Origin: Candidatus Omnitrophota bacterium
GTDB taxonomy: Bacteria; Omnitrophota; Gorgyraeia; Gygaellales; UBA12090
Reading direction: 5' to 3'
DNA length: 64,000 nt
NCBI GenBank assembly: GCA_030674475.1
Contig: JAUSCZ010000012.1
Span: 319-64,318 of the forward strand
Below are positions 18,000 through 39,370 of this stretch, in pieces; the stretch's first letter is position 1, and each line of letters opens with the position of its first letter. The translations under genes and the position numbers were made by a program. Under the pieces are notes generated by a model, which made no database searches, was not told the DNA's origin, and saw nothing but the letters and a program-made list of their open reading frames with translations.

Positions 18000-18075
18000 G
18001 GGGTCGTGGTGTAGCCTGGTTTAACACATCGCCCTGTCACGGCGAAGACCGCGGGTTCAAATCCCGTCGACCCCG
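18000..18075 (+). tRNA. tRNA-Asp (anticodon GTC)
   Basis: Manual fold: acceptor GGGGTCG/CGACCCC, anticodon loop CTGTCAC, T-arm GCGGG-TTCAAAT-CCCGT. Confidence 0.8.
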
Positions 18076-18090
18076 TTAAACCTAAATTAA

Positions 18091-18249
18091 GGGATTTGAA
18101 CAAAAGGGGAGTTTGGGGGGAAAAGGTGATTTTCCCCCCAAGAATCGCTTCTTTGTTTACGCCACGGGGTGACAGCGAACCGCCGCAGGCGGTGAGCGTC
18201 ATTAGGGGCAAGGAGCCCCTATGAAAAGTTCAAATCCCGTCGACCCCAC
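18091..18249 (+). ncRNA. tRNA-linked structured element, copy 2 (T-arm complement ... conserved core ... duplicated tRNA-Asp 3' end)
   Basis: It begins GGGATTTGAAC, the reverse complement of the tRNA-Asp T-loop. The core is ~90% identical to copy 1, with a compensatory change in the GGGGGG/CCCCCC hairpin. It ends GTTCAAATCCCGTCGACCCC, a copy of the tRNA-Asp 3' end. Confidence 0.5.
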
Positions 18250-22118: not shown

Positions 22119-24299
22119 ATGGATATCAAGAACAATCAGGTAGAGGCATATTTATCTCAACTCCAGCAGGAAAAGTTTAATGAACAGCTAAACAGCGCTT
22201 ACGGGATTTCTAAGGATGCCGCCAACCCTAAGATAGCCCGGATAGGCTTTGACGCCCAGGAGAACCGCTTAGGTTGGACTTTGGCCAACCTGAATTGGAT
22301 TTTGGGGAATTACCGGGTTGTGGAAGGCCTGCTTGAGGATGCTCAAAAGATCCGCGATAATTTTAAATACGCGGTTTTCTGCGGCATGGGGGGTTCGGGA
22401 TTAACCGTGCAGTTAGTCAAAGATACCTTTGGTGAGGGCGGGGTAATTATATACAGCTTAAGGACTACCGACCCTAAGGCAATCAAGGATATCCTGGATG
22501 AGATAACCGCGATAGAAGGCTCCTTGGAGAAAGTGCTGGAGAAGACATTAGTGATCGCGGTAAGTAAATCCGGGACTACCATAGAGACGGTTTCTCATAA
22601 AAAATATTTTGAAGAGCTTTACCATAAATTCGAAATAGACATTAAAAGGCATCTCTGGGTAATTACCGATAAAGGCTCGCCAATGGATACCGGGGACTAC
22701 CAGCAGAAAGAAATCCAGCTTAACGGTAAAGGCGATATCGGAGGCAGGTTTACCGCCCCGGCCACCAATATCTTTTTACTGCCTCTGGCCATAGCCGCTG
22801 CGGAAAAAGTTCGGACAGTTTTAGAGACGGCTAAAGCTATGAATGATACCGGGGATGTCCAGCAAGACACATTCTTAAGGTTGGGGGCTTATTTATATTA
22901 TATGGCCTTTAATGAGAGAAAAGATAAGCTTACTATGCTGATGCCGGATGAATTAAAAGATATACCGATGTGGGCGGAGCAGTTGATTGAGGAGTCTTTG
23001 GGTAAAGACGGCAAAGGCATAAGCCTTTTTTACGCGGAGAAACTCTCGCCCCGGGAATTAAGGCCTGTTCCACAGAATGACCGGGTATTCTTTCGGATAA
23101 ATATAGGCGGCAAGAAGACCAGCCCGGAGCTTTGGAACTACCTGGCGGTAAATAAATATCCGGTGTTTGAGATAGATATAAAAGATATTTACTCCGTCGG
23201 CGGGATTATGCTGGGATTGCAAAGGGCGGTGGCCGCTATCGGTTATCTCTGGGATATTTGTTTTGTGGATCAGCCGGCAGTGGAAGGTTATAAGAAGGCA
23301 ACCAAAGAGGTGATGCAGACGCCAGGGGAAGTTAAGGTCCCCGCGCAATGGCGTTTTGCCGCCTATAAAGGGCTGAAACTATATTATAGCCCTTTGCTTG
23401 AGGCTGGAGCCTTTAGCGACAGCCAATTGCGAGAAGAAGTAAAAGAGATGATAAAAAATCCTCCCCTTACCAAGGGGAGGTGGGGAGGGGTAAGAAATCC
23501 AGATGACCCGGCCGAGATATACGCGGCAATAATCAGACTGCTTGTTCAAAAGACAAAATTAGAGGCGATTGAATTTACCTCTTACGGCAAGATGTCCCCG
23601 GCTTTTAAAAATATTCTGGATGAGGCCAGGTATAATCTGTTTACCCAAGGATTAAAACTGCCGGCGAAATTAGGAGAAGGCCCGGATAAGAATCATTCTT
23701 ACCACCAGAATATTGAGGCCGGAAAAGATATGTGGTTTTCCACTTATTTCCTGGCCGATAAAATTGAACAGCCTGGATCTTTAGCATTTGACCCCAATCT
23801 GCTTAAGGCCCAGGCCATCGGAACAGTCCAATCGCTCATCAACAATAAGCGCAAGGTGGTCCTGATTACCTTTTCCGGCACCGCTCAAGACGCCCAGGGG
23901 GAGCTGAAGGAATTCTGGGATAAGGTTTTAGGGATTCTTATTGCCGCGAAGATAATAAAGAGTCCCGAGGCAAGTCAGATGGTTACTTATGATGAATTCC
24001 GGAAATTAGAGATAAAAATAGCGCGGATACAAGAGGTTAGCCCGCATCCCAATGCCGATAGGCTTTATGTGCTCAAGATTGATTTAGGCGATTCCCAGCG
24101 CCAGATTGTAGCCGGAATCCGCAATTCCTATAAACCCGAGGAATTAACCGGGAAACAGATCGCGGTGATAGTCAATTTAGAGCCGGCAGTTATCCGGGGG
24201 GTGGAGAGCCAGGGGATGTTGTTAGCCGCTTCCGATGAGAACGGAATCGCGATACTCACTCCGCAAAGGGAAGTCAAGCCGGGGAGCGTGGTAAAGTAG
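22119..24299 (+). CDS. Glucose-6-phosphate isomerase-like (SIS) domain fused to a C-terminal Myf/EMAP-type tRNA-binding domain
   Basis: PGI signature 'GDIGGRFTAPATNIF' and SIS 'FCGMGGSG'. The C-terminal ~110 aa 'EVSPHPNADRLYVLKIDLG...QIVAGIRN...GVESQGMLLA' match the tRNA_bind (CsaA/MetRS C-term) fold. Confidence 0.6.
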   Translation: MDIKNNQVEAYLSQLQQEKFNEQLNSAYGISKDAANPKIARIGFDAQENRLGWTLANLNWILGNYRVVEGLLEDAQKIRDNFKYAVFCGMGGSGLTVQLVKDTFGEGGVIIYSLRTTDPKAIKDILDEITAIEGSLEKVLEKTLVIAVSKSGTTIETVSHKKYFEELYHKFEIDIKRHLWVITDKGSPMDTGDYQQKEIQLNGKGDIGGRFTAPATNIFLLPLAIAAAEKVRTVLETAKAMNDTGDVQQDTFLRLGAYLYYMAFNERKDKLTMLMPDELKDIPMWAEQLIEESLGKDGKGISLFYAEKLSPRELRPVPQNDRVFFRINIGGKKTSPELWNYLAVNKYPVFEIDIKDIYSVGGIMLGLQRAVAAIGYLWDICFVDQPAVEGYKKATKEVMQTPGEVKVPAQWRFAAYKGLKLYYSPLLEAGAFSDSQLREEVKEMIKNPPLTKGRWGGVRNPDDPAEIYAAIIRLLVQKTKLEAIEFTSYGKMSPAFKNILDEARYNLFTQGLKLPAKLGEGPDKNHSYHQNIEAGKDMWFSTYFLADKIEQPGSLAFDPNLLKAQAIGTVQSLINNKRKVVLITFSGTAQDAQGELKEFWDKVLGILIAAKIIKSPEASQMVTYDEFRKLEIKIARIQEVSPHPNADRLYVLKIDLGDSQRQIVAGIRNSYKPEELTGKQIAVIVNLEPAVIRGVESQGMLLAASDENGIAILTPQREVKPGSVVK
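23457..23500. repeat. REP-like palindromic repeat (CCTCCCCTTACCAAGGGGAGG + G-rich tail), copy inside a CDS
   Basis: Near-identical to the 25777, 27410 and 24332 copies. It encodes the in-frame segment 'KNPPLTKGRWGGVRNPDD'. Confidence 0.6.
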
Positions 24300-25761: not shown

Positions 25762-25776
25762 ATTATGGTTATATTA

Positions 25777-25818
25777 GAAATCCTCCCCTTACCAAGGGGA
25801 GGCGGGGTGGGGTTAAAA
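25777..25818. repeat. REP-like palindromic repeat
   Basis: 'AATCCTCCCCTTACCAAGGGGAGGCGGGGTGGGGTTAAA', immediately upstream of pabB. Confidence 0.6.
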
Positions 25819-27302
25819 TGCCATACTTGACCTGGAAATCGTTTGACTGGAAGCAGGACGCCTGGGGAATTTTTGAGGCAATTAAGGATAAGCAAAATGT
25901 CTTTTTTTTGGACAGTTCTCTGCGCCGTCCGGACTTAGGCCGGTATTCCTTTTTAGGCTTTGAGCCGTTTTGTATCTTTAAAGCCAAAGGCCAAAAAGAT
26001 TCGCTTAATCAGTTAAGAACTCTGCTTGGGCGCTACAGGTTAACAAATACGAAATTTCCTTTTTTAGGCGGGGCAGTCGGCTATCTGGCGTATGATTTCG
26101 GCTTAAGCTTAGAGAACATTGAGGAAAAAACCAAGGATGATATTGGCCTTCCGGATGTATTCTTTGGCTTTTACGATGTGGTAATCGCCATTGACCATTG
26201 GCAGAAAAAGCTGACTATTTTTTCCACCGGTTTTCCCGAAAAAAGCTCTTTCTTAGCCAAAAAACGCTCAGAGCAGAGATTAAAACAGTTTATTCAGGAG
26301 TTGTCTAAGCAGGGCCGTCATTCAGGTTGTGTCACGATGTCATTGCGAGCCCCGTTAGAAAACTTTAGCAATGTTAAAAGAGTTTTTCTAACGGGGCGAG
26401 GAGCCGCAGGCGACGCGGCAATCTCAAAAACGAGTTTGCTTCACCCCTTCGGGGTTCGCAATGACAAATTAGCAATTAAGCCTGTATCTAATTTCACCAA
26501 AGAGAAATATTTAAAAGCAGTTACCAAAGCCAAGGATTACATTAAAAAAGGCGACATCTATCAGGTTAATCTCTCCCAAAGATTCAGCGCGCAAACCTCT
26601 TTAAGCAGTTTTGACTTATATCAGAAACTACGCCAGGTTTCACCCAGCGACTTCTCGGCTTACCTTGCCTGCGGAGATTTTCAGATTATCAGCTCTTCTC
26701 CGGAGAGATTCCTTAGTTTTGACGGGAAAAAGGTTTCCACCCGGCCGATGAAGGGGACCCGGCCGCGAGGAACAAATCCCCGGGCGGACGCGCGCCATAA
26801 GCGGGATTTACTGCAAAGCCCCAAAGATAAGGCCGAATTGCTGATGATTGTGGATTTACTGCGTAATGACCTGGGCCGGGTCTGTAAATATGGCTCAATC
26901 AAAGTCAGCTCAATGCGCGCCCTGGAGGCCTATTCCACGGTTTATCAGACCACCGCCTCTATTGAAGGAGTTTTGCATCCGGAAAAAGACCGCCTTGACC
27001 TGCTCAAAGCCTGCTTTCCCGGCGGCTCAATAACCGGATGCCCCAAAATCCGCTCAATGGAGATAATTGAAGAACTTGAGCCGACTAAGCGGGCAATTTA
27101 TACCGGTTCGCTGGGCTATTTTGGATTCAATAATACCATGGACCTGAATATCTTAATCCGCACAATTTTGAAAAAAAGTGATAAAATATACTTTCAGACC
27201 GGCGGCGGAATCGTATCCGATTCCCAAGCCGAAAACGAATACCAGGAAACCCTCACCAAAGCCCAGGGTATCTTTAAGACGTTAAAGCGCGGTTGCCTGT
27301 AG
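25818..27302 (+). CDS. pabB: Aminodeoxychorismate synthase component I (chorismate-binding enzyme family)
   Basis: 'SSSPERFL', 'PKIRSMEIIEELE', 'RAIYTGSLGY', 'GGGIVSDSQAENEYQET' motifs. A PabC-like gene lies 11 kb downstream. Confidence 0.75.
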   Translation: MPYLTWKSFDWKQDAWGIFEAIKDKQNVFFLDSSLRRPDLGRYSFLGFEPFCIFKAKGQKDSLNQLRTLLGRYRLTNTKFPFLGGAVGYLAYDFGLSLENIEEKTKDDIGLPDVFFGFYDVVIAIDHWQKKLTIFSTGFPEKSSFLAKKRSEQRLKQFIQELSKQGRHSGCVTMSLRAPLENFSNVKRVFLTGRGAAGDAAISKTSLLHPFGVRNDKLAIKPVSNFTKEKYLKAVTKAKDYIKKGDIYQVNLSQRFSAQTSLSSFDLYQKLRQVSPSDFSAYLACGDFQIISSSPERFLSFDGKKVSTRPMKGTRPRGTNPRADARHKRDLLQSPKDKAELLMIVDLLRNDLGRVCKYGSIKVSSMRALEAYSTVYQTTASIEGVLHPEKDRLDLLKACFPGGSITGCPKIRSMEIIEELEPTKRAIYTGSLGYFGFNNTMDLNILIRTILKKSDKIYFQTGGGIVSDSQAENEYQETLTKAQGIFKTLKRGCL

Positions 27303-27385
27303 ATAGATAAATGTGCAGGGGGAGAATGAGGGGGTTTTCCTGATTGTAATCGGTCAGAATGGAGACAAAATATTTTCCCTCTATT

Positions 27386-27457
27386 CCTCTCCCCTTGTGG
27401 GAGAGGTAAGAAATCCTCCCCTTACCAAGGGGAGGCGGGGAGGGGTTAGGTGAGGGG
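27386..27457. repeat. Tandem pair of REP-like palindromic repeats at the island boundary
   Basis: CCTCTCCCCTTGTGGGAGAGG followed by CCTCCCCTTACCAAGGGGAGGCGGGGAGGGG. Confidence 0.55.
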
Positions 27458-27515
27458 TACAAACTGTGAGTTTTCCCCTGAGAACTTACCGATTACTTAT
27501 AACAGAAAAAATGGC

Positions 27516-27554
27516 TTGACAATATGTCGCAAAAAGCATATACTTTTTGCGACA
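27516..27554 (+). promoter_or_regulatory. abiE promoter (TTGACA-17-TATACT) with an overlapping perfect 30-bp palindrome (putative AbiEi operator)
   Basis: TGTCGCAAAAAGCATATACTTTTTGCGACA spans the -10. AbiEi proteins are known to autoregulate via inverted repeats. Confidence 0.55.
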
Positions 27555-27571
27555 AGCGATAGGTTATAGAA

Positions 27572-28171
27572 ATGACACAAAGTATTTATAATAAAGTAGT
27601 TAGCATGATATACGGAATGAAGAGGGGTTGGGTATTTACTACAACTAATTTTCTTGATCTTGGAAGTCGCACGGCCGTGGCTAAAACCCTAGAGCGTTTA
27701 GCGGACTCCGGTACTATTCGCCGACTCGCGCGTGGCCTGTATGATTACCCGGAGAAACATCCTGTGTTGGGAGAGTTACCCGCGAATTATGAGCGCATCG
27801 CTCAAGCATTGGCAGGAAGGGATAGTTTGAAAATTCAACCTTCCGGGGCATATGCCGCTAATCTGCTTGGTTTAACCGAACAGGTGCCGGCAAGAATTGT
27901 TTTTTTGACAGATGGCTCCAATAGAAAAGTGCAGGTCAAAAATCAGCAGATCATTTTGAAAAGAACAACCCCCAAGAATATGGCAACCGCCGGGAATGTG
28001 AGCGGTTTGGTCATTCAGGCTTTGCGGTATTTAGGTAAAGATCACGTAGATGCTAAAACAGTAGGAATACTTAATAAGAGATTAACGGGAGATGATAAGC
28101 GCCAGCTTATGCGCGATCTTCGCTATGCCCCCGCGTGGATAGGATCAATATTTAGACAACTACAGAGATAA
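27572..28171 (+). CDS. abiEi: AbiEi-family type IV toxin-antitoxin antitoxin / transcriptional regulator
   Basis: 'TAVAKTLERLADSGTIRRLARGLYDY' matches the AbiEi N-terminal wHTH. Paired with a downstream AbiEii gene. Confidence 0.7.
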   Translation: MTQSIYNKVVSMIYGMKRGWVFTTTNFLDLGSRTAVAKTLERLADSGTIRRLARGLYDYPEKHPVLGELPANYERIAQALAGRDSLKIQPSGAYAANLLGLTEQVPARIVFLTDGSNRKVQVKNQQIILKRTTPKNMATAGNVSGLVIQALRYLGKDHVDAKTVGILNKRLTGDDKRQLMRDLRYAPAWIGSIFRQLQR

Positions 28172-28178
28172 GAAGATT

Positions 28179-29204
28179 ATGGATAAATTCGTATTGTTGA
28201 CGCGTAAAGATAAACGCGCGTACTTTGAAGTGGCCGCGGCTAACTTGAACATAATGCCGCAACTGATTGAAAAGGATTTTTGGGTATGCTGGATACTAAA
28301 AATTATTTTTTCATTACCGAAGGTCGGCGCGCATTTAACCTTTAAAGGGGGAACATCCCTCTCAAAATGTTATAACGTTATTAAACGCTTTTCGGAAGAT
28401 ATCGATATTTCAATAGAAAGGCCTTTTTTATCAAAGACCCATGCTATCGAACCGGATAAAGAAAAAAGCAATAAGGAAAATCAGAAAAGACTCAAGGAAT
28501 TGCAATTGGTTTGTAAAACAAAAATTGATGAAATGATCATCCCCAGCTTAAAACAATCAATCGCGGCAGTTCTTTCCGATACCGGGGAATGGAAAATTGA
28601 ACCGGATTCCGGGGATGAGGACGGACAAACTGTTTTATTTATCTTTCCTCATGCTATGACGAGTACCGCGGAAAGTTACGTAAGATCCTCAGTCAAAATT
28701 GAATTTGGCGCTCGATCTGATCATTGGCCGGTTGAAACCGCGACAATTGTCCCCTATGTCGCGAATGTTTCCGGGGAGCGGGTTATTGAAGGGGCTTCCG
28801 CGCGCGTTTTAGCCGCGGAACGGACTTTTTGGGAGAAAGCGACGATCCTGCATATGATATATCATTATCCGTCTGAAAAAAACATACCGCCGCGAATGTC
28901 GCGGCATTATTACGATATATACGCGATGGCAGATTCGCCCATATATAAAAAAGCATTAAAGAGTATTTCGTTGTTAAAACATGTATCTGACCATAAATCT
29001 CTATTTTTTAAAGCGAATTGGGCGCATTATGATACAGCCAAGTCGGGTACCTTGCGGTTAGTGCCTCGTGATAATCTGGTGAGCCAACTGAAAAATGATT
29101 ACCGTCAAATGCAGCAAATGTTTTTTGAAGAGCCTCCGTCATTTGAGCAAATTATAGAAAAACTCCGGGCCATAGAAGAACAGATTAATAGGATCTCCTT
29201 ATGA
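28179..29204 (+). CDS. abiEii: AbiEii/AbiGii-family nucleotidyltransferase toxin (DUF1814)
   Basis: 'FKGGTSLSKCY...SEDIDIS' NTase motif typical of AbiEii. Confidence 0.75.
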   Translation: MDKFVLLTRKDKRAYFEVAAANLNIMPQLIEKDFWVCWILKIIFSLPKVGAHLTFKGGTSLSKCYNVIKRFSEDIDISIERPFLSKTHAIEPDKEKSNKENQKRLKELQLVCKTKIDEMIIPSLKQSIAAVLSDTGEWKIEPDSGDEDGQTVLFIFPHAMTSTAESYVRSSVKIEFGARSDHWPVETATIVPYVANVSGERVIEGASARVLAAERTFWEKATILHMIYHYPSEKNIPPRMSRHYYDIYAMADSPIYKKALKSISLLKHVSDHKSLFFKANWAHYDTAKSGTLRLVPRDNLVSQLKNDYRQMQQMFFEEPPSFEQIIEKLRAIEEQINRISL

Positions 29205-29349
29205 ATTACTACTGCACCTCAGATTATCACTTTTCGCGTTGCGTAAAAAAGAAGGCCCTGGCCTTATCCAATCCCGAACTGCATCGCCTTGCGCGAAAAC
29301 TATTAGAAGTTTAAAGGGAAAAAAGGAAAAATGGGGTCAGGGAATAATA

Positions 29350-29453
29350 GGGTCAGCGACCATTTTATTGAAAGATGGAGGAAATTTTGGGAAGCGTTAA
29401 CTATAATGAAAAAGGACAGACCACGAAAATGACAATAAATGGTCGCTGTCCTT
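29350..29453. repeat. Small TIR element (GGGTCAGCGACCAT ... ATGGTCGCTGTCC), GGGGTCAG-family relative
   Basis: A 12-nt inverted repeat with one mismatch flanks ~76 nt. It is preceded by a partial GGGGTCAG at 29333. Confidence 0.4.
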
Positions 29454-29530
29454 ATTTTCCGATTGTTCGCCTGGGCAAGGATTTTTGCAAAAAGACTAAA
29501 CCAAGGTGTGAAATATGCCCGATAAAGTAA
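29452..29530 (+). pseudogene. Fragment homologous to the 3' end of the endonuclease III-like gene at 45146..45787
   Basis: It translates to '..PIVRLGKDFCKKTKPRCEICPIK*', versus 'ALIVRLGKDFCKKTNPKCEICPIK*' at 45723..45787. The helicase start codon (29515) lies inside it. Confidence 0.6.
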
Positions 29531-32500
29531 AGAAACAATCCGAAGTGCAAAACAAAGCAATCAGGCTTTTTACTTATCTCGAAAAAGCCCTTTCTCTCGA
29601 TGACACTATCGTGAGAGATTTTCGGTCTACTATCACTGCACCTTCTCCTTGGTGGCTGGCAGATTTACCTGATGATGTTGAAAATCTTCAAGTTAGGCAG
29701 TTTGAAACTAATCAGACTGGGGATGAGGAGAATGCGACTCAAGATGAGGTTTGGCTTCGTGTGGAGAAAAAGAGTATCAAATCTGCTCCGCCGATGCCGG
29801 ATGCTCTGAACGAATGGATTGATGAAGTGAATCCCATTGAGACCCCAAAAGCAAAGGAAAAAATTGACCGGAAGATAAAGTTTGATCAAGACGAAACTCG
29901 CGCTCGGGAATTCAAAAAATTCAGAAAAGAATTTGCTCAAGGAAACAAGCCGCCGAAACTTCTTGAGGAATGGGTTGTTTTGAGCCCAAATAAATTTCCC
30001 GAGGTTATAGAAGAAAGATATATTGAGGAATACTTTAACGATCACCCCGAACTCCAAAGTCTTCTTAATGACTACATTGAGAACGAATGGAAGCCGTGGG
30101 CGCAAAAAGTGGTAAAAATCTACAAGGCAAATTTGCTTTATGACCAACTCTATGCCTTACGCTTTCTTTTGAAAAACGAGGGGGATAGTTATGAGTTGTT
30201 ATGGGGACACGGTTTACTCACATGGAAGCACGGTGGCATAGGGACAATTTATGCACCGATCTTTTTAACTCCTTTAACGCTGGGTTTTGACGCTTCAAAG
30301 AGAGTAATTGAGATTTATCCCGATCCAATGTTTCGGGGTTTTGCGGAAATTTCATCCCTGTACGAAATGGATAATCCCGCAGAAATGGACTTGATAACAT
30401 GGTCGGACAAAATCAATTCAAATCCATTCAACTTTTGGCATTTTGAAACACTCAAAACGCAGACGCGGTTTATGATAAACACACTCTCAACCTCAAGTGA
30501 AGACTATTTTGACGAAAAACTTGTTTCTGCTCCCAATTCTACCGTAACGCCGAGTATTTGGAACGCGCCAGTGATATTTGCGCGGAAACGGACAAATGAC
30601 CTTTGGTCAAAATACGCGGGTATTATTCGGCGCGATATCGAGCAGAACAACATAGAACCGACAGAGTTTATTGCCGATCTTGTTGGCAACTATCAAGAGA
30701 CGGAGCAAATAGAAAGCGAGAATGGCGGCGAAAAAGAAGGCGAAACGATACTAAAAGAATCAGAATTGTTTTTCCCGTTGCCATGGAATGATGAGCAAAA
30801 AAGAATCGCGGAACGGCTTGATGCGCATTATGGGGTCGTAGTAAAAGGTCCGCCGGGCACCGGAAAAACTCACACTATCGCCAATCTTATTTCTCGCTTT
30901 CTGTCACAAGGAAAGACTGTTTTGGTTACATCACAAACGAGTAAGGCATTGGAAGTTTTAAGAGATAAATTACCAGAAAATATTCGAAGCCTTGCCGTCT
31001 CGCAACTCCATCAAACCGCGAGACAGGACGATGTATTACAACAATCAATTACTGAGATTAGCTCTAACCTGGGAGAGCGGCATACAAAATTCAGCGAGCA
31101 AAAAGCGGAAATTAAAAGAAAGGAACTTCAGGGCGTCAGGGAAGAGAGAGCACCTCTCGCAAATCAAATAAGGAAGTACATTCTTACGGACTCAAGCGTA
31201 AAAATTGAAATAGACGGAGAGGAAATCAATCCTATTGACGCGGCGAAGTTGGTTAGCAGGTACAAAGATGATCCAACGCTTGAATGGTTTACGGATAAAA
31301 TTCACTTTGAGACAAAACTCAATTTCAAAGACGAAGATTTAGAAGAAATCTACATGTTACTTACAGAACTTAATTCCGAAGAGCGGCAACTACATAAATT
31401 TGAGTTACCAATGACCTTCAGTCTACCAAGCGAAGATGCGGCAACGGGAGTTTTTTCCTCATACCGAGATCTAAGTGATAGGGTGAAAACATCAAATAAA
31501 GTTTTTGGCGACTCCAATCCAAACCTCCAGCAGGAGAAACTCACAACCCTATGGGAACAACTATCAAGCGCTAAAAAGGTTTTATTTTCCATAAACAAGG
31601 ATTATGAAAAAGAGATTTTTGGATTGTGTATAGTCAGCCAAAGCGAGCGAGAAAAATGGCGCGTCGTCCTTTCAAAAATTGGCGAGAAAATCTATTTGAT
31701 CGGCAAAAGTAGTACAAGCATTCTCGGCCACGAAATTATCGGTAACCAAAACATCCCGCTCACTGATCTTTTGGAGGCAATATCTGTTCTGAAGGAAAAG
31801 GCGAGAGGTAGAACAAAGATAGGGACTTTTGCGAAGTTGCTTTTGTCGTCTCATGGGAAAAAGGTTTTGGAGAGCTACAAAGTAGACGGCCGCGTTCCCG
31901 AAGATGCAGAACGCTTGGAAATTCTGCACCAAAGCGTTCTTATCAAGCAAGCACAGAAAGAAATTAAAACTTTATTGGGACAAAGTTTTTCTCACCTGAA
32001 GTCGCCTTTTGATTCGCAGGATCAAGAGGTTGATGTGGTACAACTTGAGGTATTGATCTCAAGTCTTGAAAGGATAATCAATTACTACGAAAACTTTGTT
32101 ACCATAGACAAATTTTGCAAAGCAATAAGACAACTTTCCGATTTTGCGTTTACTAAAATCGAGGATATCGAAAAACTTACTGAAATCATTTCGTCCCATG
32201 TAGCGAAATTTGAGATCGTGAATTTAGAAACTTTATTGTCCGGCTGGACTCAATCAATTGAGACATCTATAAACGGCGAAAGACACTCAATCATAGAAAA
32301 ATTACTATCGGCGATAAACAAACGGAATACAACCGCATGGAGAAACGCCCTTGATGAACTCGGGTTGCTTCTTGATAAAAAGCAAAGGGCGATCCGCTTG
32401 AATGAATTATCTCAAAAAGTTAAAGAACTCTCTCCGAATCTCTATCAGGATATTGGTGGACTTGCCGATCAGAAAAAAAAGCTTTTGTGCCCTAAAAATC

Positions 32501-34113
32501 TCGGTCTTGCATGGAAAATAGCGCGACTCGAATCGTGGCTCGATCATATCCATAATCATATTGATATTGATAGTTTGCAAAATCAATTAGAGCGGCTAAC
32601 CAAAAAAGAATATCAACTGAATTCCGATCTCGTAACTATTCTCGCTTGGCAGAGACAGATTGATAAGGTTACGAAAAAACAACGTGATGCGCTGATGGCG
32701 TGGTCGCACGAGATGAAAAAGTATGGAAAGGGTACCGGCAAGTGGGCGATTACGCATCTCCGTGCGGCACAAGAGGCATTGAAAGAGGCGAAAAATGCCG
32801 TGCCTGTTTGGATTATGCCGCTCCATCGTGCCGCTCAAATGTTTTCGGATCCGAAGGCGGGAATGTTCGATATTGTTATTTTTGACGAAGCGAGCCAGTG
32901 CGATATACGAGGAATTACAATAGGATATCTCGGTAAAAAACTTCTCGTTGTCGGCGACCCAGAACAGATTAGCCCCGCCGGTATATTCCAAGATCAAGAG
33001 AAAATATTTGAACTCATTTCTCGATTTCTGTTTGATATTCCTTTCAAAGAAAGTTTCTCAATAACATCGAGCTTGTTTGATCTCGCAAAAATAAGATTAT
33101 CCAATATAATTCAGTTAAACGAACATTTTAGGTGCGTGCCGGAAATCATCGCATTCAGCAATCACCATATATACGAAGGAAAACTTAAACCTCTACGGTA
33201 TCCTCACCCTAAAGGATTATTGAAGCCCGCACTTGTTCCGATTTTTATAGAAACGGGCTATCAAAATACAAACAACAAAGTCAACGTGCCAGAAGCAGAA
33301 GCGATTGTTGAAAAGTTAGTTGAATGCCTAAATGACCCAAATTATCAAAAACGCCCGGATAATGTAGGTAGCCACATATGTACATTCGGGATCGTGTCTC
33401 TGCTTGCCGAAGATCAAGCGAAATATATCAAAGAGTTAATTTTAAGACGTATTGACGAGAGAACAATAGAGGAAAGGCGTATTGTTTGTGGAGATGCGTA
33501 TGCGTTTCAAGGAGATGAAAGGGATGTGATGTTTCTTTCTGTGGTGAAAGCACTCGATTCAAATGATCCGGAAGATGTAGTTAGATCTCTGACGGACGAG
33601 GGTACGAAACGAAGGTTTAACGTTGCCGCGTCTCGTGCCCGCGATCAGATGTTTTTATTTCATTCAATCCCCCTTGAAGAATTTAGAAACCCTAACGATT
33701 GGAGATATAAACTTCTCAACTGGTTTTACAATCCAAGGACCGAGGAATTGAATGCTGGGCGAGATGCCCTAAAGCGAGAGTTTAATTCTGGCAGGGCATC
33801 GCAGTTCTCTTTTGATGTTGGAAATATCCTGATCGATCGTGGCTATCAGGTTTTGCCGGAATATCCAGTCATTGGGTATCGAATTGACCTTGTTGTGCAG
33901 GGTGCAGAGGCTCGTCTTGCTGTGGAGTGCGATGGAGATCAATATCATACACTAGAAAATTGGGAAGAGGATCAAGTGCGAGAGAGACAGCTGAGAAGGG
34001 CTGGATGGGAATTTTGGAGAGTTACCGGAAGTGCGTTTTATCGAAACAAAGAAAAAGCTCTCGAAAGTTTATGGAAGAAACTAAACGAATTAGGCGTTAA
34101 ACCGATTATTTAA
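29515..34113 (+). CDS. 1532-aa SF1 (Upf1/DNA2-like) helicase with a DUF4011-like N-terminal region and a C-terminal Vsr/DUF559-type PD-(D/E)xK nuclease domain
   Basis: Walker A 'GPPGTGKTHTIANL', Walker B 'VIFDEASQ', 'VVGDPEQISP', 'CGDAYAFQGDERDVMFLSVV' and 'RRFNVAASRARDQMFLF' motifs. C-term 'YRIDLVVQGAEARLAVECDGDQYHTLENWEEDQVRERQLRRAGWEFWRV' matches DUF559. Confidence 0.8.
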   Translation: MPDKVKKQSEVQNKAIRLFTYLEKALSLDDTIVRDFRSTITAPSPWWLADLPDDVENLQVRQFETNQTGDEENATQDEVWLRVEKKSIKSAPPMPDALNEWIDEVNPIETPKAKEKIDRKIKFDQDETRAREFKKFRKEFAQGNKPPKLLEEWVVLSPNKFPEVIEERYIEEYFNDHPELQSLLNDYIENEWKPWAQKVVKIYKANLLYDQLYALRFLLKNEGDSYELLWGHGLLTWKHGGIGTIYAPIFLTPLTLGFDASKRVIEIYPDPMFRGFAEISSLYEMDNPAEMDLITWSDKINSNPFNFWHFETLKTQTRFMINTLSTSSEDYFDEKLVSAPNSTVTPSIWNAPVIFARKRTNDLWSKYAGIIRRDIEQNNIEPTEFIADLVGNYQETEQIESENGGEKEGETILKESELFFPLPWNDEQKRIAERLDAHYGVVVKGPPGTGKTHTIANLISRFLSQGKTVLVTSQTSKALEVLRDKLPENIRSLAVSQLHQTARQDDVLQQSITEISSNLGERHTKFSEQKAEIKRKELQGVREERAPLANQIRKYILTDSSVKIEIDGEEINPIDAAKLVSRYKDDPTLEWFTDKIHFETKLNFKDEDLEEIYMLLTELNSEERQLHKFELPMTFSLPSEDAATGVFSSYRDLSDRVKTSNKVFGDSNPNLQQEKLTTLWEQLSSAKKVLFSINKDYEKEIFGLCIVSQSEREKWRVVLSKIGEKIYLIGKSSTSILGHEIIGNQNIPLTDLLEAISVLKEKARGRTKIGTFAKLLLSSHGKKVLESYKVDGRVPEDAERLEILHQSVLIKQAQKEIKTLLGQSFSHLKSPFDSQDQEVDVVQLEVLISSLERIINYYENFVTIDKFCKAIRQLSDFAFTKIEDIEKLTEIISSHVAKFEIVNLETLLSGWTQSIETSINGERHSIIEKLLSAINKRNTTAWRNALDELGLLLDKKQRAIRLNELSQKVKELSPNLYQDIGGLADQKKKLLCPKNLGLAWKIARLESWLDHIHNHIDIDSLQNQLERLTKKEYQLNSDLVTILAWQRQIDKVTKKQRDALMAWSHEMKKYGKGTGKWAITHLRAAQEALKEAKNAVPVWIMPLHRAAQMFSDPKAGMFDIVIFDEASQCDIRGITIGYLGKKLLVVGDPEQISPAGIFQDQEKIFELISRFLFDIPFKESFSITSSLFDLAKIRLSNIIQLNEHFRCVPEIIAFSNHHIYEGKLKPLRYPHPKGLLKPALVPIFIETGYQNTNNKVNVPEAEAIVEKLVECLNDPNYQKRPDNVGSHICTFGIVSLLAEDQAKYIKELILRRIDERTIEERRIVCGDAYAFQGDERDVMFLSVVKALDSNDPEDVVRSLTDEGTKRRFNVAASRARDQMFLFHSIPLEEFRNPNDWRYKLLNWFYNPRTEELNAGRDALKREFNSGRASQFSFDVGNILIDRGYQVLPEYPVIGYRIDLVVQGAEARLAVECDGDQYHTLENWEEDQVRERQLRRAGWEFWRVTGSAFYRNKEKALESLWKKLNELGVKPII

Positions 34114-34155
34114 AAAACCATTAGAGTAAGCCAAAGTTGAAGAATACAGAAAAAT

Positions 34156-34229
34156 GGGGTCAGAGTGAATTTATGATGGCAGAATCGTGAGGGGAATAGA
34201 GAGAATGCTTAAAAAATAGACCTGACCCC
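34156..34229. mobile_element. 74-nt MITE, GGGGTCAG...CTGACCCC family, copy A
   Basis: Terminal inverted repeats GGGGTCAG/CTGACCCC. Identical, including short flanks, to copy C at 35536. Confidence 0.7.
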
Positions 34230-34249
34230 TATATTTGGCTGAAAATAAA

Positions 34250-34322
34250 GGGGTCAGAGCGGATTTAGGATGGTAGAATCGTGAGGGGATGGAGGGAATA
34301 CTTTAAAAGTAGACCTGACCCC
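34250..34322. mobile_element. 73-nt MITE, same family, copy B (diverged)
   Basis: GGGGTCAGAGCGGATTTAGGATGGTAGAATCGTGAGGGG...AGACCTGACCCC. Confidence 0.65.
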
Positions 34323-34431
34323 GACTCCTATGTGCGTTGAAGTAGCGAAAGCAAAATTTGCAATGAAACAGGCATGTAAGAGGTTAGTTTTCGCTATGAG
34401 CTTTATTACGGCTTAAATCTATGATTCTAAT

Positions 34432-35379
34432 ATGAAGAAATATGCAGATTCAATAACACAATATTTACAAAATGAATTAAAGAATTCTGCAGTTAGTTAT
34501 TTAAAGGCAGGGTTGGAGATTTTTCATAAGACAAATAAAGCAGGAAGTTGGAGCAGTCAACCTGCTTTGGGAAATTTGGGGATAGCGGTAGAATTGATGT
34601 TAAAGGCGTTTATCGTAAAAAATAATCCCCTTCTCCTTTTTAAAGGGTTGCCTATAGAACTTCAGGTGTTATTTACTTGCCCTGATTCTTTGCCCCGAGA
34701 TTTTAATTGGAGACTATTTGATATCGATTTACGATCATTTAAGTATGAAACCAAAGAATTAAATGAGTGTATCTCAGCATTTTATGTATTATTACCAGAG
34801 CATAAACAAGAGCTTAATCCGTACATGCAATTATTATCACGGTATAGAAATGCTAGTGTTCATTCTGCTTTGCCTTCATTTCAGGCCTATGAGATTCAAA
34901 GAGTGGCGTTTCTATCGTTGCGTTTGTTATCAATTCTCCAGTCTCGAAAAATAATCTCTGAGTATGCGCACATCACTACAAAAGATGACAAGTATTTCCT
35001 TTCTGCATTTAAACTTGACCGAATCGACCGTGTTAAGAAGAAAATCGATGATGCTAAGGAAAAGTCAAAACGTATTCCAGCGGGGCAAGCTTCATTGAGC
35101 GTAGATGGTTGGGAGAACTATGTGACACAATGTCCAATATGCGAATCTGACGGGATGCTTTCTGGCTATACAGATATACATGTTGAAGGGTCAGCAGAAG
35201 ATGTTGATCTATCGCTAGACTTTCTCGCAGATGGATTCATATGTGAAGAGTGTGGATTAGAGTTAAATGATACTGAAGAACTCAGGTTGGCAGGGATAGA
35301 GTTGTATTATGATCGTTCTAGTGAATTAGATGCATGGCATAGGGATCAGTATGAGCCTGATCCAAGTGAATATCTATAA
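34432..35379 (+). CDS. Hypothetical 315-aa protein with an Rx4H (HEPN-like) motif and a C-terminal zinc ribbon
   Basis: 'LLSRYRNASVHSALP' (R-x4-H) at aa ~139-144; 'CPICESDGM...CEECGLEL' Cys pairs. No other recognisable motif. Confidence 0.4.
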   Translation: MKKYADSITQYLQNELKNSAVSYLKAGLEIFHKTNKAGSWSSQPALGNLGIAVELMLKAFIVKNNPLLLFKGLPIELQVLFTCPDSLPRDFNWRLFDIDLRSFKYETKELNECISAFYVLLPEHKQELNPYMQLLSRYRNASVHSALPSFQAYEIQRVAFLSLRLLSILQSRKIISEYAHITTKDDKYFLSAFKLDRIDRVKKKIDDAKEKSKRIPAGQASLSVDGWENYVTQCPICESDGMLSGYTDIHVEGSAEDVDLSLDFLADGFICEECGLELNDTEELRLAGIELYYDRSSELDAWHRDQYEPDPSEYL

Positions 35380-35535
35380 CTATTTGCTTTTATGAACGAA
35401 GCCTATCCCCTTAAAATTCCGTCAGTTTTTTTGAAAAAAGAGGGAGAAGGATAGCGGGGTAAATAGGGTTAGCTTAGGTTGTCCCTATTTTTTCAAAGAG
35501 GAGCAATTTGGAAAAATTATTGCAGAGGGAATAAT

Positions 35536-35609
35536 GGGGTCAGAGTGAATTTATGATGGCAGAATCGTGAGGGGAATAGAGAGAATGCTTAAAAAATAGA
35601 CCTGACCCC
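35536..35609. mobile_element. 74-nt MITE, same family, copy C
   Basis: Identical to copy A. Confidence 0.7.
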
Positions 35610-35639
35610 TATATTTCCTATATTTACGCGGAACATCTG

Positions 35640-36412
35640 GAAGTATGGTATGGGCAGAAAAAAACAGAGACTATCAGCCGGCTAAGAGGAGAATACAAAC
35701 ACAGGATAAATTACCGGCATATCATAGATTGGCTGGTAAGGAAGCCCGGCGCATTCCAACAATACCGGTATCGGCAGGATATGTTCCCCACGACAATATT
35801 CCGCCTGGCATATGACAATTTAATAGCGCATAGCCCTGCCAAAGGGCATAAGGATTATCTGGAGATATTATATTTAGCTTCAAAAGAGAGCGAAACAGGG
35901 GTTGGACAGGCATTGGAGAGCCTTTTAGAGAATCAGCAGGCTATAAATATGGACGCGGTCAGGAAAATCTTAGAAGTGGATACAGAAAAAACATCAGTTG
36001 CGGATATACGAATCGACAGTATTAACTTATATGATTACGATGAATTCCTGACGGTTAAGGAGGCAGCCTGATGATAAAGACAGCAATCAATATTAAGTCG
36101 CGCCTCAAGGAAATGTTAAAAGAACTGCATTTATCAGCAATCAGGGAATCGTATGAAGAGCTGGCAAAAGACGCGCAAGCGAATTCGTTATCTCCTGAAG
36201 AATTTTTATTAGGATTGACTGAGCGGGAATGTGAATACCGGCGGTTAAGACGAACAGATCGGTTATTACGGGAATCGCGGCTGCCGCTGGAGAAAACGAT
36301 GGAGTTATTTAATTTAAAACGGCTGCCGGCGATAGTAATCCAGAAGGTAAAAAGCCTGCTTGATGGTGAATTCCTTAACCCCTCCGAAAATGGGGTCAGC
36401 CCCGGACAGTAG
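35640..36412 (+). mobile_element. IS21-family remnant: istA C-terminal fragment and 3'-truncated istB (N-terminal 113 aa only)
   Basis: 'MLKELHLSAIRESYEELAKDAQANSLSPEEFLLGLTERECEYRRLRRTDRLLRESRLPLEKTMELFNLKRLP' matches the IstB N-terminal domain. It stops before the Walker A box, exactly where repeat E1 begins. The upstream ORF 'DMFPTTIFRLAYDNLIAHSPAKGHKDYLEIL...' abuts it as istA does. Confidence 0.65.
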
Positions 36413-36470
36413 ACATTAATTGATAAAAGATTAATTGAATGACTATAATCGCGTTTTGTCCACACAACGC
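36392..36470 (+). repeat. Repeat E1: GGGGTCAG-initiated ~78-nt element end carrying an inward sigma70 promoter (TTGATA-18-TATAAT)
   Basis: ~90% identical to E2 (37480..37548). It truncates istB and sits 170 nt upstream of the DUF3800 gene. Confidence 0.6.
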
Positions 36471-36642
36471 TTAATTCATCGAATTCGATGGGGAGATAAA
36501 AAATGGACATCCTTTGTAACATGTTGAAATCTTTAACAGGATAGATAAATATTGTGACAAAGTTAATCTTGTTAAAAAGATTGGGCTAATCGTTTTTATC
36601 CGCGAAGTAGAGTAAAACGTGGCTGTGCAGAAGGCAGGGTAA

Positions 36643-37295
36643 GGTGTTTTATTTATATCTAGACGAAAGCGGTGATTTGGGGGTTTGATTTTGTTACTAA
36701 GAAACCCTCAAAATTCTTCACTATCATGGTGCTCGTGCTGAAAGGACAGGATAAGAACCGCGCGCTTATTAATGCGGTAAAGCATACATTAAGGCGCAAG
36801 TTAGGGAAAAGGAAGCTGTTCAAGAGCATTGGCTGCGAATTAAAGGCAAGCAGGGTGTCTATTGAAATTAAAAAGTATTTCTACGACCAGGTCAAGGGGT
36901 TGGATTTCAAATTGTATACGTTGACTCTCAACAAGAAAAGGGTGTATCAAAGCTTAATGCAAGAAAAGGAGAGAATTTATAATTACCTCGCCCGCTTAGT
37001 GTTGGATAAGATAAGTTTTGATAATGCTGAAGTCAGGGTTACGCTGATAGTGGACAAAAGCAAGGGTAAGCCTGAAATTTCCGAATTCAATTCATATATC
37101 TTTAGGCAGATTCAGGCAAAAATTGATCCCAAGATACCATTAGATATTGAGCATGCGTTATCGCATGAGAACTTGGGTTTGCAAGCAGTGGATATGTTTA
37201 CTTGGGGGATATTCAGAAAATATGAGAGGAAAGACTTTGGGTGGTTCAGGGTATTTGAGAGCAAGATGGCTTACGATGATGTTTATCTACCATAA
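36643..37295 (+). pseudogene. DUF3800-family gene with a +/-1 frameshift in a G5 tract
   Basis: GTG-initiated 'VFYLYLDESGDLGV*' (the N-terminal DUF3800 DESGD motif) stops at 36686. The rest continues in another frame as 'GFDFVTKKPSKFFTIMVLVLKG...GLQAVDMFTWGIFR'. A single-base change in GGGGG would fuse them. Confidence 0.6.
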
Positions 37296-37626
37296 AATAA
37301 AAATGAGCGCGCCTTACAGGTTCGTTAAGTTTAGGCTTTTGCCCACCATACGGAGGGGAACACCTAAACAACCCGTAACGGTCTTACCGCTCACTTATAA
37401 GTATACCCTATGAGAAGGTTTTGTCAAGATGAAAATTTGGATAAATAGTCGTTTCTGTGCAAAACGACGGGAAAACGACGGGGTCAGACCCGGACAGTAG
37501 ACATTAATTGGTAAAAGATTAATCGAATGACTATAATCGCGTTATGTCCAACTATGGGATAGTAGAAACATATTGACAATGTAACTACATTGTAGTATTA
37601 TTGTAATAGAATAAGAAAATGAACCA

Positions 37627-37902
37627 TTGATGCATATTCATAGTTTTGACTGGGATGAGAAAAATGAAAACCATATAGCCGAACATGGAGTCGCGATCTT
37701 TGAGGTTGAGGAGGCAGTTCTATTTAGTAGGCCTTTCTATCAGAGAAGCAGGGAGGGTAAATATATTGCTTATTCTCTCACCGAGGAAGAGAGGTATCTC
37801 TTTATAGTTTTTGTGATCAAAGATAGTGGCCGGATAAGGGTGATTAGCGCCAGAGATATGAATGAGAAAGAGAAGCGTTATTATAAAAAGAAGAAGAGGT
37901 AA
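37627..37902 (+). CDS. brnT: BrnT-family ribonuclease toxin (DUF497)
   Basis: 'FDWDEKNENHIAEHGVAIFEVEEAV...RVISARDMNEKEKRYY' matches BrnT. Confidence 0.75.
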   Translation: MMHIHSFDWDEKNENHIAEHGVAIFEVEEAVLFSRPFYQRSREGKYIAYSLTEEERYLFIVFVIKDSGRIRVISARDMNEKEKRYYKKKKR

Positions 37903-37909
37903 AATAAAC

Positions 37910-38239
37910 ATGAAGAAACTGCCCAAATTCAAAACGGAAAAAGAAGAGGCCAGTTTTTGGGATACGCACAGCCCATTGGATTATCCAGGTGAGTTCAGTG
38001 AGGTAAAGAATCCGTTTGAATTCGCTCCCGGTCTTTTAAAAAAAGCCGCCCGAAGCCGCGAAGAAAGAAAACGCCAGCTTACCTTAAGGATGGGGCAGCG
38101 TCAAATTGATCTCGCCAAGGTTATTGCTAAATATAAAGGATTGGGCTATCAAACTCTAATGAGAATATGGGTTATTGAAGGAATCCGTCAAGAGATTAAG
38201 ACGCATCCAGAGATAGAAAAACTCCTTACCAAAATATAG
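37910..38239 (+). CDS. brnA: BrnA-family antitoxin
   Basis: 'KKLPKFKTEKEEASFWDTHSPLDY' matches the BrnA N-terminus. C-terminal RHH-like region. It overlaps brnT. Confidence 0.7.
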   Translation: MKKLPKFKTEKEEASFWDTHSPLDYPGEFSEVKNPFEFAPGLLKKAARSREERKRQLTLRMGQRQIDLAKVIAKYKGLGYQTLMRIWVIEGIRQEIKTHPEIEKLLTKI

Positions 38240-38337
38240 CTAAATAAAAAGCTGGAGAGAATGGGTTAAGCTCAAGCAATAGAAATTAACTTCTAAAGTT
38301 GAGGTCTGACCCCAGAAAGTGCAGCGGTACCATTTAG

Positions 38338-39150
38338 ATGAAAATTTGGCTTAATGGGAAATTTGTAAAAGAGGAAGAAGCGAAGGTTGACATTACCTCA
38401 AGCGGTTTTTTATACGGCCAGGGGGTTTTTGAGACGATGCGGGCTTATAATGAGCGGGTTTTTCGTTTGGACAGCCATCTGGAGCGCCTGTTTAAGGCCC
38501 TGCCTATTCTTAACCTGGAATTATCCGTAGGACCTGAGGTTTTGAAAAAGGCGCTTAAGCAGGCTTTAAAAGAAAATAATCTTAAAGACGCCTATTTACG
38601 GATAACGGTCTGGCAGGGGAAAGATAAGGTTGAGGCCGCGGTTTTTGCCCGGGCGTATAATTTTTTAACCAAAGAGGATTACCATAAAGGCTTTAAGGCG
38701 ATAGTTTCCAGTTTTCGCCAGAATGAATTTTCCATCTTTTCCGGAATTAAGTCCGCTAACTATTTGCCTTTACTCCTGGCTTATCAGGAGGCAAAAAAGA
38801 AAAATGCCGATGAGGCCATACTTTTAAATACCCGGGATTTTCTGGTTGAGGCCTCCCGGGCTAATCTCTTTTTAGTTAAAGATAATTGTTTATTGACCCC
38901 ATCGTTAGACTGCGGATGCCTTCCCGGAATTACCCGGGATACGGTTTTAGGCCTGGCGGCTAAGGAAAAGATAAAGGTAATTGAGACTAAGCTTAAACCG
39001 GAGGATGTCCAGAGAGCCGAGGAGGCCTTTTTGACTAATTCCTTGATTGAGGTGATGCCGCTGGTCGCGGTTGAAGGAAGGCCGATTAAAAAAGGAGTTC
39101 CCGGTAAGATTGCCGAGCGTATTTTAAAACGTTACAAGGGATTGACTTAA
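38338..39150 (+). CDS. pabC: Class IV aminotransferase-fold protein, probable aminodeoxychorismate lyase
   Basis: Fold-type IV PLP enzyme ('GQGVFETMRAY', 'EAFLTNSLIEVMPLV'). It is the only nearby partner for pabB. Confidence 0.6.
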   Translation: MKIWLNGKFVKEEEAKVDITSSGFLYGQGVFETMRAYNERVFRLDSHLERLFKALPILNLELSVGPEVLKKALKQALKENNLKDAYLRITVWQGKDKVEAAVFARAYNFLTKEDYHKGFKAIVSSFRQNEFSIFSGIKSANYLPLLLAYQEAKKKNADEAILLNTRDFLVEASRANLFLVKDNCLLTPSLDCGCLPGITRDTVLGLAAKEKIKVIETKLKPEDVQRAEEAFLTNSLIEVMPLVAVEGRPIKKGVPGKIAERILKRYKGLT

Positions 39151-39160: not shown

Positions 39161-39370
39161 ATGATAAAACATATATTTAGAATAAGTTTTGGGGTGGTTT
39201 TGATACTCTTAGGCGTTGTTGGGATATTCCTGCCGATTATGCCCGGGCTGTTATTGATTCTTCTGGGTAGCGCGGTGATAGTAGAGAAAAACCCTAAGGT
39301 TTTATTCGGTGAAATCGCCGAAAAAGTAAAAAGAAAGATGAGGACTAAACAAAATGAAAAAGCCGGTTAA
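39161..39370 (+). CDS. DUF454/YbaN-like small inner-membrane protein
   Basis: 'LGVVGIFLPIMPGLLLILLGS' with two TM helices. Confidence 0.5.
   Translation: MIKHIFRISFGVVLILLGVVGIFLPIMPGLLLILLGSAVIVEKNPKVLFGEIAEKVKRKMRTKQNEKAG

Follow-up and report, generated by a model that had tools for sequence, protein, structure and literature searches.

Copies of gene ends beside acquired genes are known from several settings. Prophages, integrative and conjugative elements (ICEs) and genomic islands produce att duplications at gene or tRNA 3' ends. In arrays of Rhs, contact-dependent inhibition (CDI) and type VI secretion system (T6SS) genes, orphan 3' gene fragments and displaced modules have been attributed to homologous or homology-facilitated illegitimate recombination (PMC5361080), and homology-facilitated illegitimate recombination (HFIR) has been described in E. 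coli (PMC3240628). Defence genes accumulate at core-gene-flanked sites such as the core defence hotspots (cDHS) of Pseudomonas aeruginosa (PMC10250203) and the integration hotspots of E. coli (PMC10121019). Here we analysed a 64-kb stretch of DNA (the window) from a metagenome-assembled genome (MAG) of Candidatus Omnitrophota, in which a diverged duplicate of the 3' end of an endonuclease III-like gene (nth) lies inside a defence island and contains the start codon of a helicase-nuclease gene. This fragment, termed nth', is probably a recombination scar, namely the left junction of a second hotspot, derived from a related Omnitrophota lineage and carried together with the helicase into the island where it now lies.

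The locus resembles the Rhs, CDI and T6SS arrays in that a foreign module was joined with little homology, stray ends of neighbouring genes are present and no element-encoded recombinase is needed; it differs from them in that nth' comes from a housekeeping repair gene, was apparently moved to a different locus and would serve as a translation start. Two sites are involved, hotspot 1 between pabB and pabC (pabB|pabC) and hotspot 2 between nth and an M1-peptidase/Omp85 fusion gene (nth|M1). Like the Pseudomonas and E. coli hotspots, they are fixed core-gene positions with variable defence sets, often without a mobility gene, whereas they are distinguished by their occurrence in Omnitrophota, by natively overlapping gene pairs, by one cassette found at either hotspot and by the repeats (D1, D8 and a hairpin) at cassette borders. 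The arrangement also recalls translationally coupled overlapping gene pairs and start capture, with an ATG in the last codons of the upstream gene and host-derived initiation signals. Since only 71 nt of the upstream gene are left, coupling to a full open reading frame (ORF) would be lost, unless a 51-codon ORF at 29375-29530 is translated.

Domains were called with Pfam and defence genes with PADLOC, nucleotide sequences were compared by blastn, and peptides were compared with DNA by tblastn. The comparison covered about 20 nth loci and six further helicase contexts, and 18 nth 3' ends were aligned in the search for a donor allele. Compared loci (relatives, helicase contexts and Logan contigs) carry L-numbers, and homologous proteins carry P-numbers. 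L033 holds a complete nth-to-M1 stretch, while L035, L065 and L067/68 end at contig ends. The duplicate and its counterpart are:

29461-29531, plus strand: nth', the last 22 codons and stop of a second, diverged endonuclease III-like allele (from homology and statistics)
45146-45787, plus strand: resident, intact nth-like gene, 213 aa, with an HhH-GPD domain (Pfam); its end reads ATC TGC

The two copies aligned without gaps over 71 nt (29461-29531 against 45718-45788; 56/71 identical, 79%), including the TAA stop and one base beyond, and a blastn comparison of the island with the window recovered the match at E = 3.5e-10. The tblastn comparison of nth residues 192-213 with nth' gave 20/22 identical positions (E = 2.3e-10), the aligned peptides of the two copies being IVRLGKDFCKKTKPRCEICPIK and IVRLGKDFCKKTNPKCEICPIK. 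The HhH-GPD domain is incomplete in nth', where only the 22 final codons are present, and the frame upstream (MEEILGSVNYNEKGQTTKMTINGRCPYFP) is unrelated to nth. On the left, positions 29452-29460 were non-homologous, including the proline that precedes IVRLG (...YHAL-IVRLG in nth, ...PYFP-IVRLG at nth'). Across all six frames of the window and of the 64 loci fetched by then, the pattern G[KR][DE].C.{6}C..C matched only full nth genes and nth'. Homology at the nucleotide level and a motif restricted to nth establish that the repeat is real and exclude a low-complexity coincidence. The first-pass annotation of the window had been right about the repeat and about its tie to accessory DNA, and neither of the doubts it raised, chance similarity and a common cysteine motif, was borne out; its left limit (29452) was nine bases too generous, and its identities of about 70% (nucleotide) and 85% (protein) were too low.

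It is hardly credible that the fragment is an artefact, produced by convergence on an Fe-S loop or by a chimeric assembly. The region does encode a Cys-rich motif, the assembly is metagenomic, and Logan contigs break at D1 repeats. However, the nucleotide homology (E about 1e-10) includes the stop and flank, six-frame translation of the window shows the motif at no other place, and the join AbiEii-palindrome-nth'-helicase lies in unique sequence of Logan contig L002 (equivalent to window 29000-34182), which was assembled separately from the same run. Chance and Fe-S-loop motif convergence were ruled out as causes by the E value and by the six-frame uniqueness.

The left edge of nth' is formed by a palindromic element:

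29326-29340, plus strand: D1 left-end remnant, 15 nt, 100% match to 34149-34163 (GAAAAATGGGGTCAG)
29341-29460, no strand: palindromic element of 120 nt with 28-30-nt arms (self-blast of 29341-29370 against 29433-29460, 87%)

The end of this element (29460) abuts the first base of nth' (29461). Its DNA fold had an energy of -17.2 kcal/mol (z = -2.8), its arms resemble the sequence immediately upstream of pabC in L007, and no further copies of the 120-nt element were found. The palindrome marks the truncation point of nth' and may be either its cause (insertion with adjacent deletion) or a mere mark of the join.

The coding differences between nth' and the resident nth (15 in 69 coding nt, with two amino-acid changes) were distributed 0/1/14 over the three codon positions (P for at least 14/15 at the third position = 2.2e-6). 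This excess at third positions indicates that the two diverged as functional coding sequence, with a signature of purifying selection between them. The nth' peptide was identical to the C-termini of two orthologues (P0137 and P0142; 85-89% identity to the window nth). At the nucleotide level, the best of the 18 nth 3' ends was that of L065/L066 (62/71, all nine differences synonymous), compared with 56/71 for the resident and 49-60/71 for the other orthologues; orthologues matched the resident at 47-61/71. Because nth' is closer to L065 than to the resident and shows an orthologue-like spread, it looks like one more allele of the clade and not like a recent copy of the resident gene. We infer a foreign origin for this allele, and its sequence suggests that it was cut fairly recently from a functional nth of a related lineage and has not yet decayed.

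The gene that begins inside nth' and its start signals are:

29503-29532, plus strand: putatively captured translation start, with the Shine-Dalgarno (SD)-like AAGGTG at 29503-29508, the ATG at 29515-29517 and the codons for MPDKVK from the nth'/M1 start
29515-34113, plus strand: helicase-nuclease gene, 1532 aa, superfamily 1 (SF1) helicase (AAA_11/AAA_12) with a C-terminal MTES_1575/DUF559 nuclease (Pfam)

The helicase-nuclease resembles the PADLOC candidate defence gene PDC-S37. As already seen in the first pass, its ATG and ribosome-binding site both lie within nth', the SD-like sequence 6 nt upstream of the ATG, and an independent gene call on L002 (516-5114) gave the same start as the window call. 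The helicase DNA was 95% identical to L003/L004 over 29513-34074 only, with no match upstream; L003/L004 are an otherwise unrelated defence island with DarT/Macro and an Eco57I-type enzyme. The helicase-nuclease is thus a recent horizontal acquisition. Its homologues begin with MTEKKETTEV, MAQQEEKTEF or MTEQGKTEV and share a conserved core from TEVQNK.[VI]RLFTYLEKAL, so the replacement affected no more of the helicase than its variable N-terminal tail. The nth-type homology, which extends to 29531 (to 29541 against L035), overlaps the helicase homology, which begins at 29513, in an A-rich stretch with microhomology (ATG...AAAGAAACA-CC), and the crossover falls within about 29516-29540. The overlap has the look of a short-homology, illegitimate join. 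In all, nth' has the profile of a gene remnant, being a startless, truncated piece that abuts unrelated sequence with microhomology at the join. In several other genomes the gene immediately upstream of the helicase is a small HTH_17 gene, which is missing at this place in the window. Upstream of the helicase, a promoter scan returned a single weak site (29429-29458); chance alone would yield as many, and the site was not counted as evidence. Judged by its sequence, the only plausible present role of nth' would be to provide the helicase with its leader, ribosome-binding site, start codon and first six codons.

The start codon in nth' has a counterpart at the native junction between nth and the gene that normally follows it, a point missed in the first pass:

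47752-50568, plus strand: M1-peptidase/Omp85 fusion gene (M1/Omp85; Pfam)

In relatives with an empty hotspot 2, the ATG of M1/Omp85 lies within the nth end, in ...ATATGCCCGATAAAGTAA. When the nth end ...ATA TGC CCG ATA AAG TAA is read in the +2 frame, it gives ATG CCC GAT AAA GTA A.., the M1/Omp85 frame is open back into the nth end, and this junction ATG is the first usable start before the signal peptide. Gene calls placed the M1/Omp85 start at 779 in L076, with the nth stop at 794, which is exactly the junction ATG; in L072/L074, M1/Omp85 was called from 779 and nth to 803. The M1/Omp85 N-termini read MPDKVKEKGK in L037 and MPDKIRVSS in L032, and the window helicase begins with MPDKVKKQSEV. 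The native M1/Omp85 start therefore lies within the nth end. Because the ATG in nth' is this native start, nth' is more than an nth end: it represents the whole nth/M1 junction, relocated, and so the left edge of hotspot 2. The resident window nth, ending in ATC TGC, has no internal ATG, and the same holds for other genomes with an occupied hotspot 2. The window M1/Omp85 start differs from that of the relatives and is preceded by a second copy of the promoter and 5' untranslated region (5'UTR) of a DUF4143 cassette; apparently M1/Omp85 gained a leader of the cassette type when it was separated from its start within nth. The two leader copies (47669-47738 and 45799-45867) carry TTGTCA-18-TAAGAT and are identical at 41/49 positions.

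Hotspot 2 of the window contains:

45788-47751, no strand: hotspot 2 insertion between nth and M1/Omp85 (Pfam, PADLOC, relatives)
45792-47054 (gene 45861-47054): DUF4143/AAA_14 ATPase cassette (PDC-S01)
47035-47122: D1 repeat
47144-47569: DUF3800 fragment
47669-47738: second copy of the cassette promoter/5'UTR

In five lineages (L009, L010, L032, L036 and L037) hotspot 2 was empty, nth being directly followed or overlapped by M1/Omp85, which identifies window 45788-47751 as a second insertion. The site was occupied in L035 too, and elsewhere its cargo was as follows:

L007/L031: promoter remnant and one D1 repeat (a scar)
L033: three DUF4143-type ATPases
L065: DUF4143, GmrSD and DUF4143
L067/68: DUF4143, ORF6N and NTase/HEPN (NTP_transf/HEPN)
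Window: DUF4143 and the DUF3800 fragment

Hotspot 1 and the core genes up to nth are:

25818-27302: pabB-like gene (Pfam)
27303-38337, no strand: hotspot 1 island, 11-kb accessory/defence insertion (Pfam, PADLOC, relatives)
27572-29204: AbiEi/AbiEii (Pfam, PADLOC)
34149-34330, plus strand: tandem pair of D1 repeats (34149-34236 and 34243-34330), directly 3' of the helicase
34432-35379: unknown gene, 315 aa
35529-35616, plus strand: third D1 repeat, after the 315-aa gene, 99% identical to 34149-34236
36071-36412: IstB fragment (Pfam)
36392-36462, 37480-37550 and 38284-38313: D8-type repeats (GATGGGGTCAGMCCCGGACAGTAGACATTAAT...) and the matching hairpin/right end (...GTTGAGGTCTGACCCC)
36672-37295: DUF3800 (Pfam, PADLOC)
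37416-37446, plus strand: eroded pabC 5'-end copy (...GGTTTTGTCAAGATGAAAATTTGGATAAAT), closely followed by a D8-type repeat; counterpart of pabC' in L007
37480-38313, no strand: CopG-like unit, 834 nt, bounded by inverted repeats GGGGTCAGACC... / ...GGTCTGACCCC; 91% identical to L031 1-332
37862-38239: CopG-like gene
38338-39150: pabC-like gene (Pfam)
39161-45141: core genes between the islands, a short DUF454-like ORF followed by tetratricopeptide repeat (TPR)/transglutaminase, M48 peptidase and PilZ genes

The island thus runs in the order AbiEi/AbiEii, nth'-helicase, unknown gene, IstB fragment, DUF3800 with a DUF3800-V RNA, and CopG-like unit, the right end of the last lying 24 nt before the pabC ATG. 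In L008 and L036, pabB and pabC are adjacent and overlapping, so window 27303-38337 is an 11-kb insertion; the site is occupied in the window, L007 and L031. The fragment nth' lies 2.2 kb inside this island, which is parted from nth by 7.5 kb of conserved core genes that are syntenic with L007, L008, L009 and L036. Both hotspots are variable. As core-flanked hotspots, they show conserved flanks, variable content and empty sites in relatives, and their cargo is of defence and toxin-antitoxin type (AbiEi/AbiEii, PDC-S37, PDC-S01 and DUF3800 by PADLOC; GmrSD and HEPN/NTase in relatives). A DUF3800-V RNA motif (RF02964, 76.5 bits) was located at 37300-37398 on the minus strand, adjoining the island DUF3800 gene. 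A 51-nt GC-rich palindromic repeat (ATCCTCCCCTTACCAAGGGGAGGCGGGG...), like a repetitive extragenic palindrome (REP) or a terminator, occurred at 23451-23501, at 25773-25823 in the spacer before pabB, and at 27406-27456 just within the left edge of hotspot 1.

The two hotspots exchange cassettes: the DUF4143 cassette (92-96% nucleotide identity, common left boundary AAARRGGCTTGACAAT) was found after nth in the window, L033 and L065, and before pabC in L007. The D1 repeats (about 74-88 nt, with the ends GGGGTCAG...CTGACCCC and a strongly conserved interior) lie on the 3' side of defence cassettes and, in relatives, occurred only at hotspot 2 (L007 10395-10478; L031 10682-10765; L033 2063-2278; L065 2364-2438; L067/68, at L067 1914-1994). 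With the nth/M1 junction on its left and D1 on its right, the helicase block carries hotspot 2-type sequence on both sides. In L007/L031, D1 encodes the M1/Omp85 N-terminus, and Logan contigs break inside D1.

A second stray gene end was found at hotspot 1 of a relative. L007 carries a 91-nt duplicate of the pabC 5' end (pabC'; 1320-1410 against 2963-3053) that is about 96% identical to its own pabC and is cut off exactly by a D8-type repeat; a 1.5-kb insert follows, with the intact pabC downstream. At its own hotspot, it mirrors what nth' represents for the other. In the window islands, the only other stray core-gene piece was the weak pabC 5' remnant at about 37416-37446. Together, pabC' of L007 and the eroded window copy indicate that stray ends of flanking core genes are a recurrent by-product at these loci.

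We infer the following order of events and recombination route for a scar of this kind. At the start, M1/Omp85 would have begun at the ATG within the nth end, with the hotspot empty. Short-homology (illegitimate) recombination within roughly the first 5-9 codons of a horizontally acquired helicase-nuclease would then have fused this gene to the nth/M1 junction, so that it lost its native start, along with any partner gene upstream of it, and adopted the nth-embedded SD-like sequence and ATG. The nth'-helicase-D1 block would later have reached pabB|pabC by transfer and illegitimate or repeat-mediated recombination, with the palindrome now marking the nth cut-off.

Several points weigh against this sequence of events. 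The best of the sampled nth alleles matched nth' at 87% (62/71), and no donor above 90% was found; nor did any of the roughly 20 nth loci and six helicase contexts show the donor arrangement, a full nth followed by this helicase. The crossover can be placed to about 25 nt at best. The occupied state of hotspot 1 was seen in two relatives only (L007 and L031), with partial coverage. D1 might also move on its own as a repeat, and the argument drawn from it would then be weaker. The route from hotspot 2 to hotspot 1 could have been horizontal gene transfer with illegitimate joining, a repeat-mediated unequal crossover or an unidentified recombinase.

An origin within the genome is unlikely. Here, an unequal crossover at D1/D8 would have duplicated the block from pabC to nth with the cassette that followed it, a deletion would have left only the last 71 nt of the first nth copy, and the intact nth or the whole core block would later have undergone allelic replacement, which would account for the divergence of 21%. 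The geometry fits, as nth'-helicase-D1-...-pabC...nth share one orientation, nth' lies just upstream of the block and D1 is present at the join; repeats common to both hotspots exist, and the pabC 5' duplicates in L007 and the window are equally compatible with it. However, the 15 differences in 69 coding nt, mostly synonymous, and the closeness of nth' to L065 demand the extra replacement step, no relative has two core blocks, and the identity of nth to its relatives is no outlier among neighbouring genes.

In the first-pass annotation, nth' was read as the border of an accessory segment, marked by the nth end that an integrating element had brought along. Such an integrase element, leaving an attL/attR-type duplication that was later rearranged, is an improbable source of nth'. 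A diverged gene-3'-end copy beside acquired genes is the classic pattern of att duplications, the two copies share an 11-nt exact core (TGCCCGATAAA) at their very end, and a real tRNA-3'-end duplication in the window (8675-8695 and 8845-8865) indicates that such elements may exist in this genome. Against it, the recombinase screen (Pfam on window ORFs of at least 100 aa, minus a few within longer annotated genes, and on the small ORFs of the island) found no integrase or tyrosine/serine recombinase and, as to transposases, only the IstB fragment, and none were present among the called genes of the L065 and L067-L069 hotspot loci. There is no long identical core; the 11-nt run at the extreme 3' end, the longest exact match between the copies, is too short and too conserved among all orthologues to tell in either direction. 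Furthermore, nth' lies 16 kb upstream of the intact gene at another hotspot, with core genes between, inside the island and not at its border, and the two do not flank one element; in relatives the insertions lie after the nth stop, and no second nth end was present at the occupied site (L033 complete; L035, L065 and L067/68 in the parts sampled). Thus nth' is not a member of the att-duplication class, three of whose four defining features are lacking. We agree with the earlier judgements that nth' and nth do not form a current attL/attR pair and that the event was older or rearranged.

The earlier suggestion that the nth fragment is tied to the helicase gene found no support in other genomes. 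No nth sequence lay upstream of helicase homologues, close or distant, in the six contexts (L003/4, L005, L006, L078-81, L082-84), which include the three closest helicase homologues (82-94% identity). This speaks against a mobile unit of the helicase in which nth' has a function, homing to the nth terminus with fragment and helicase travelling together, a model that we consider scarcely more probable than the integrase element. The helicase has a nuclease domain and is unusually mobile, which would suit such a unit, and the start MPNKV of the homologue P0011 hints at a second helicase that begins in an nth end; the P0011 junction, however, lies at a different distance from the conserved core and is not the same junction. 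P0011 (71% identity, on a 16,419-nt Logan contig) begins MPNKVQVNIK..., and an nth end ...ATA TGC CCA ATA AAG TAA would encode MPNKV in its +2 frame. From this reading, P0011 may be a second helicase starting inside an nth 3' end; it had no relative in IMG/VR. Members of the helicase-nuclease family show unusual conservation and mobility: the best 120 matches were 64-94% identical over about 1530 aa and came from Omnitrophota, the candidate phyla radiation (CPR) and other groups, and many members carry a Cys-rich N-terminal extension of about 70 aa.

It is rather doubtful, more so than an origin within the genome, that the scar is a by-product of an unrecognised cassette-shuffling system of Omnitrophota or of a helicase that repeatedly lands on the nth terminus, as the MPNKV start of P0011 would suggest. 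In a shuffling system, cassettes bounded by GGGGTCAG-terminated repeats (D1, D8 and hairpin) could be moved between overlapping-core-gene junctions by a recombinase acting in trans. In relatives, D8-type repeats were present in L007 (135-221 and 1413-1502), L033 (3493-3529), L035 (from 1293) and L065 (4604-4641), the L035 copy lying 28 nt beyond the nth stop. No match to D1, D8 or the 120-nt palindrome was found among known RNA families (Rfam), and IMG/VR held no exact matches to D1 or D8. An integron cassette array was set aside: the Pfam screen found no IntI, and D1, judged by eye, lacks attC core sites (RYYYAAC ... GTTRRRY) and is conserved in its interior and not in its stem. The hairpin element contains CCTCAAC...GTTGAGG within a longer perfect stem. 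Ends of the form GGGG... might be read as Tn3-like.

Read as a relocated hotspot 2 junction, nth' is a dated, directional tracer of the exchange of defence genes between two nearby hotspots and between lineages of an uncultivated phylum, an exchange that proceeds without a local integrase. Its sequence suggests how a newly arrived gene of 4.6 kb, deprived of its 5' end, can be made expressible by the start codon of a displaced host gene. The fragment defines no new mechanism, being a known type of scar with start-codon capture as a twist; anything new is more likely to be concealed in the repeat families that border the cassettes.

Accessory and repeated sequences were also observed elsewhere in the window. 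A further DUF4143 gene (72-953) and an AbiEii-like nucleotidyltransferase gene (1621-2124) lie beside pyrimidine-biosynthesis genes and may form a third accessory patch. A second copy of the tRNA-Arg(ccg) 3' end (GTTCAATTCCTGCCAGGCGCA, 8675-8695) lies 170 nt downstream at 8845-8865 (within 8624-8865), and a stretch of about 149 nt at 8706-8854 recurs with 91% identity after tRNA-Asp (18089-18237, within 17999-18237), ending in a tRNA-3'-like sequence; these are genuine att-like or tRNA-linked repeats. At 60725-60817 on the plus strand, a c-di-GMP-I-GGC riboswitch (RF03167) was detected with 59.7 bits, the gathering score being 59.

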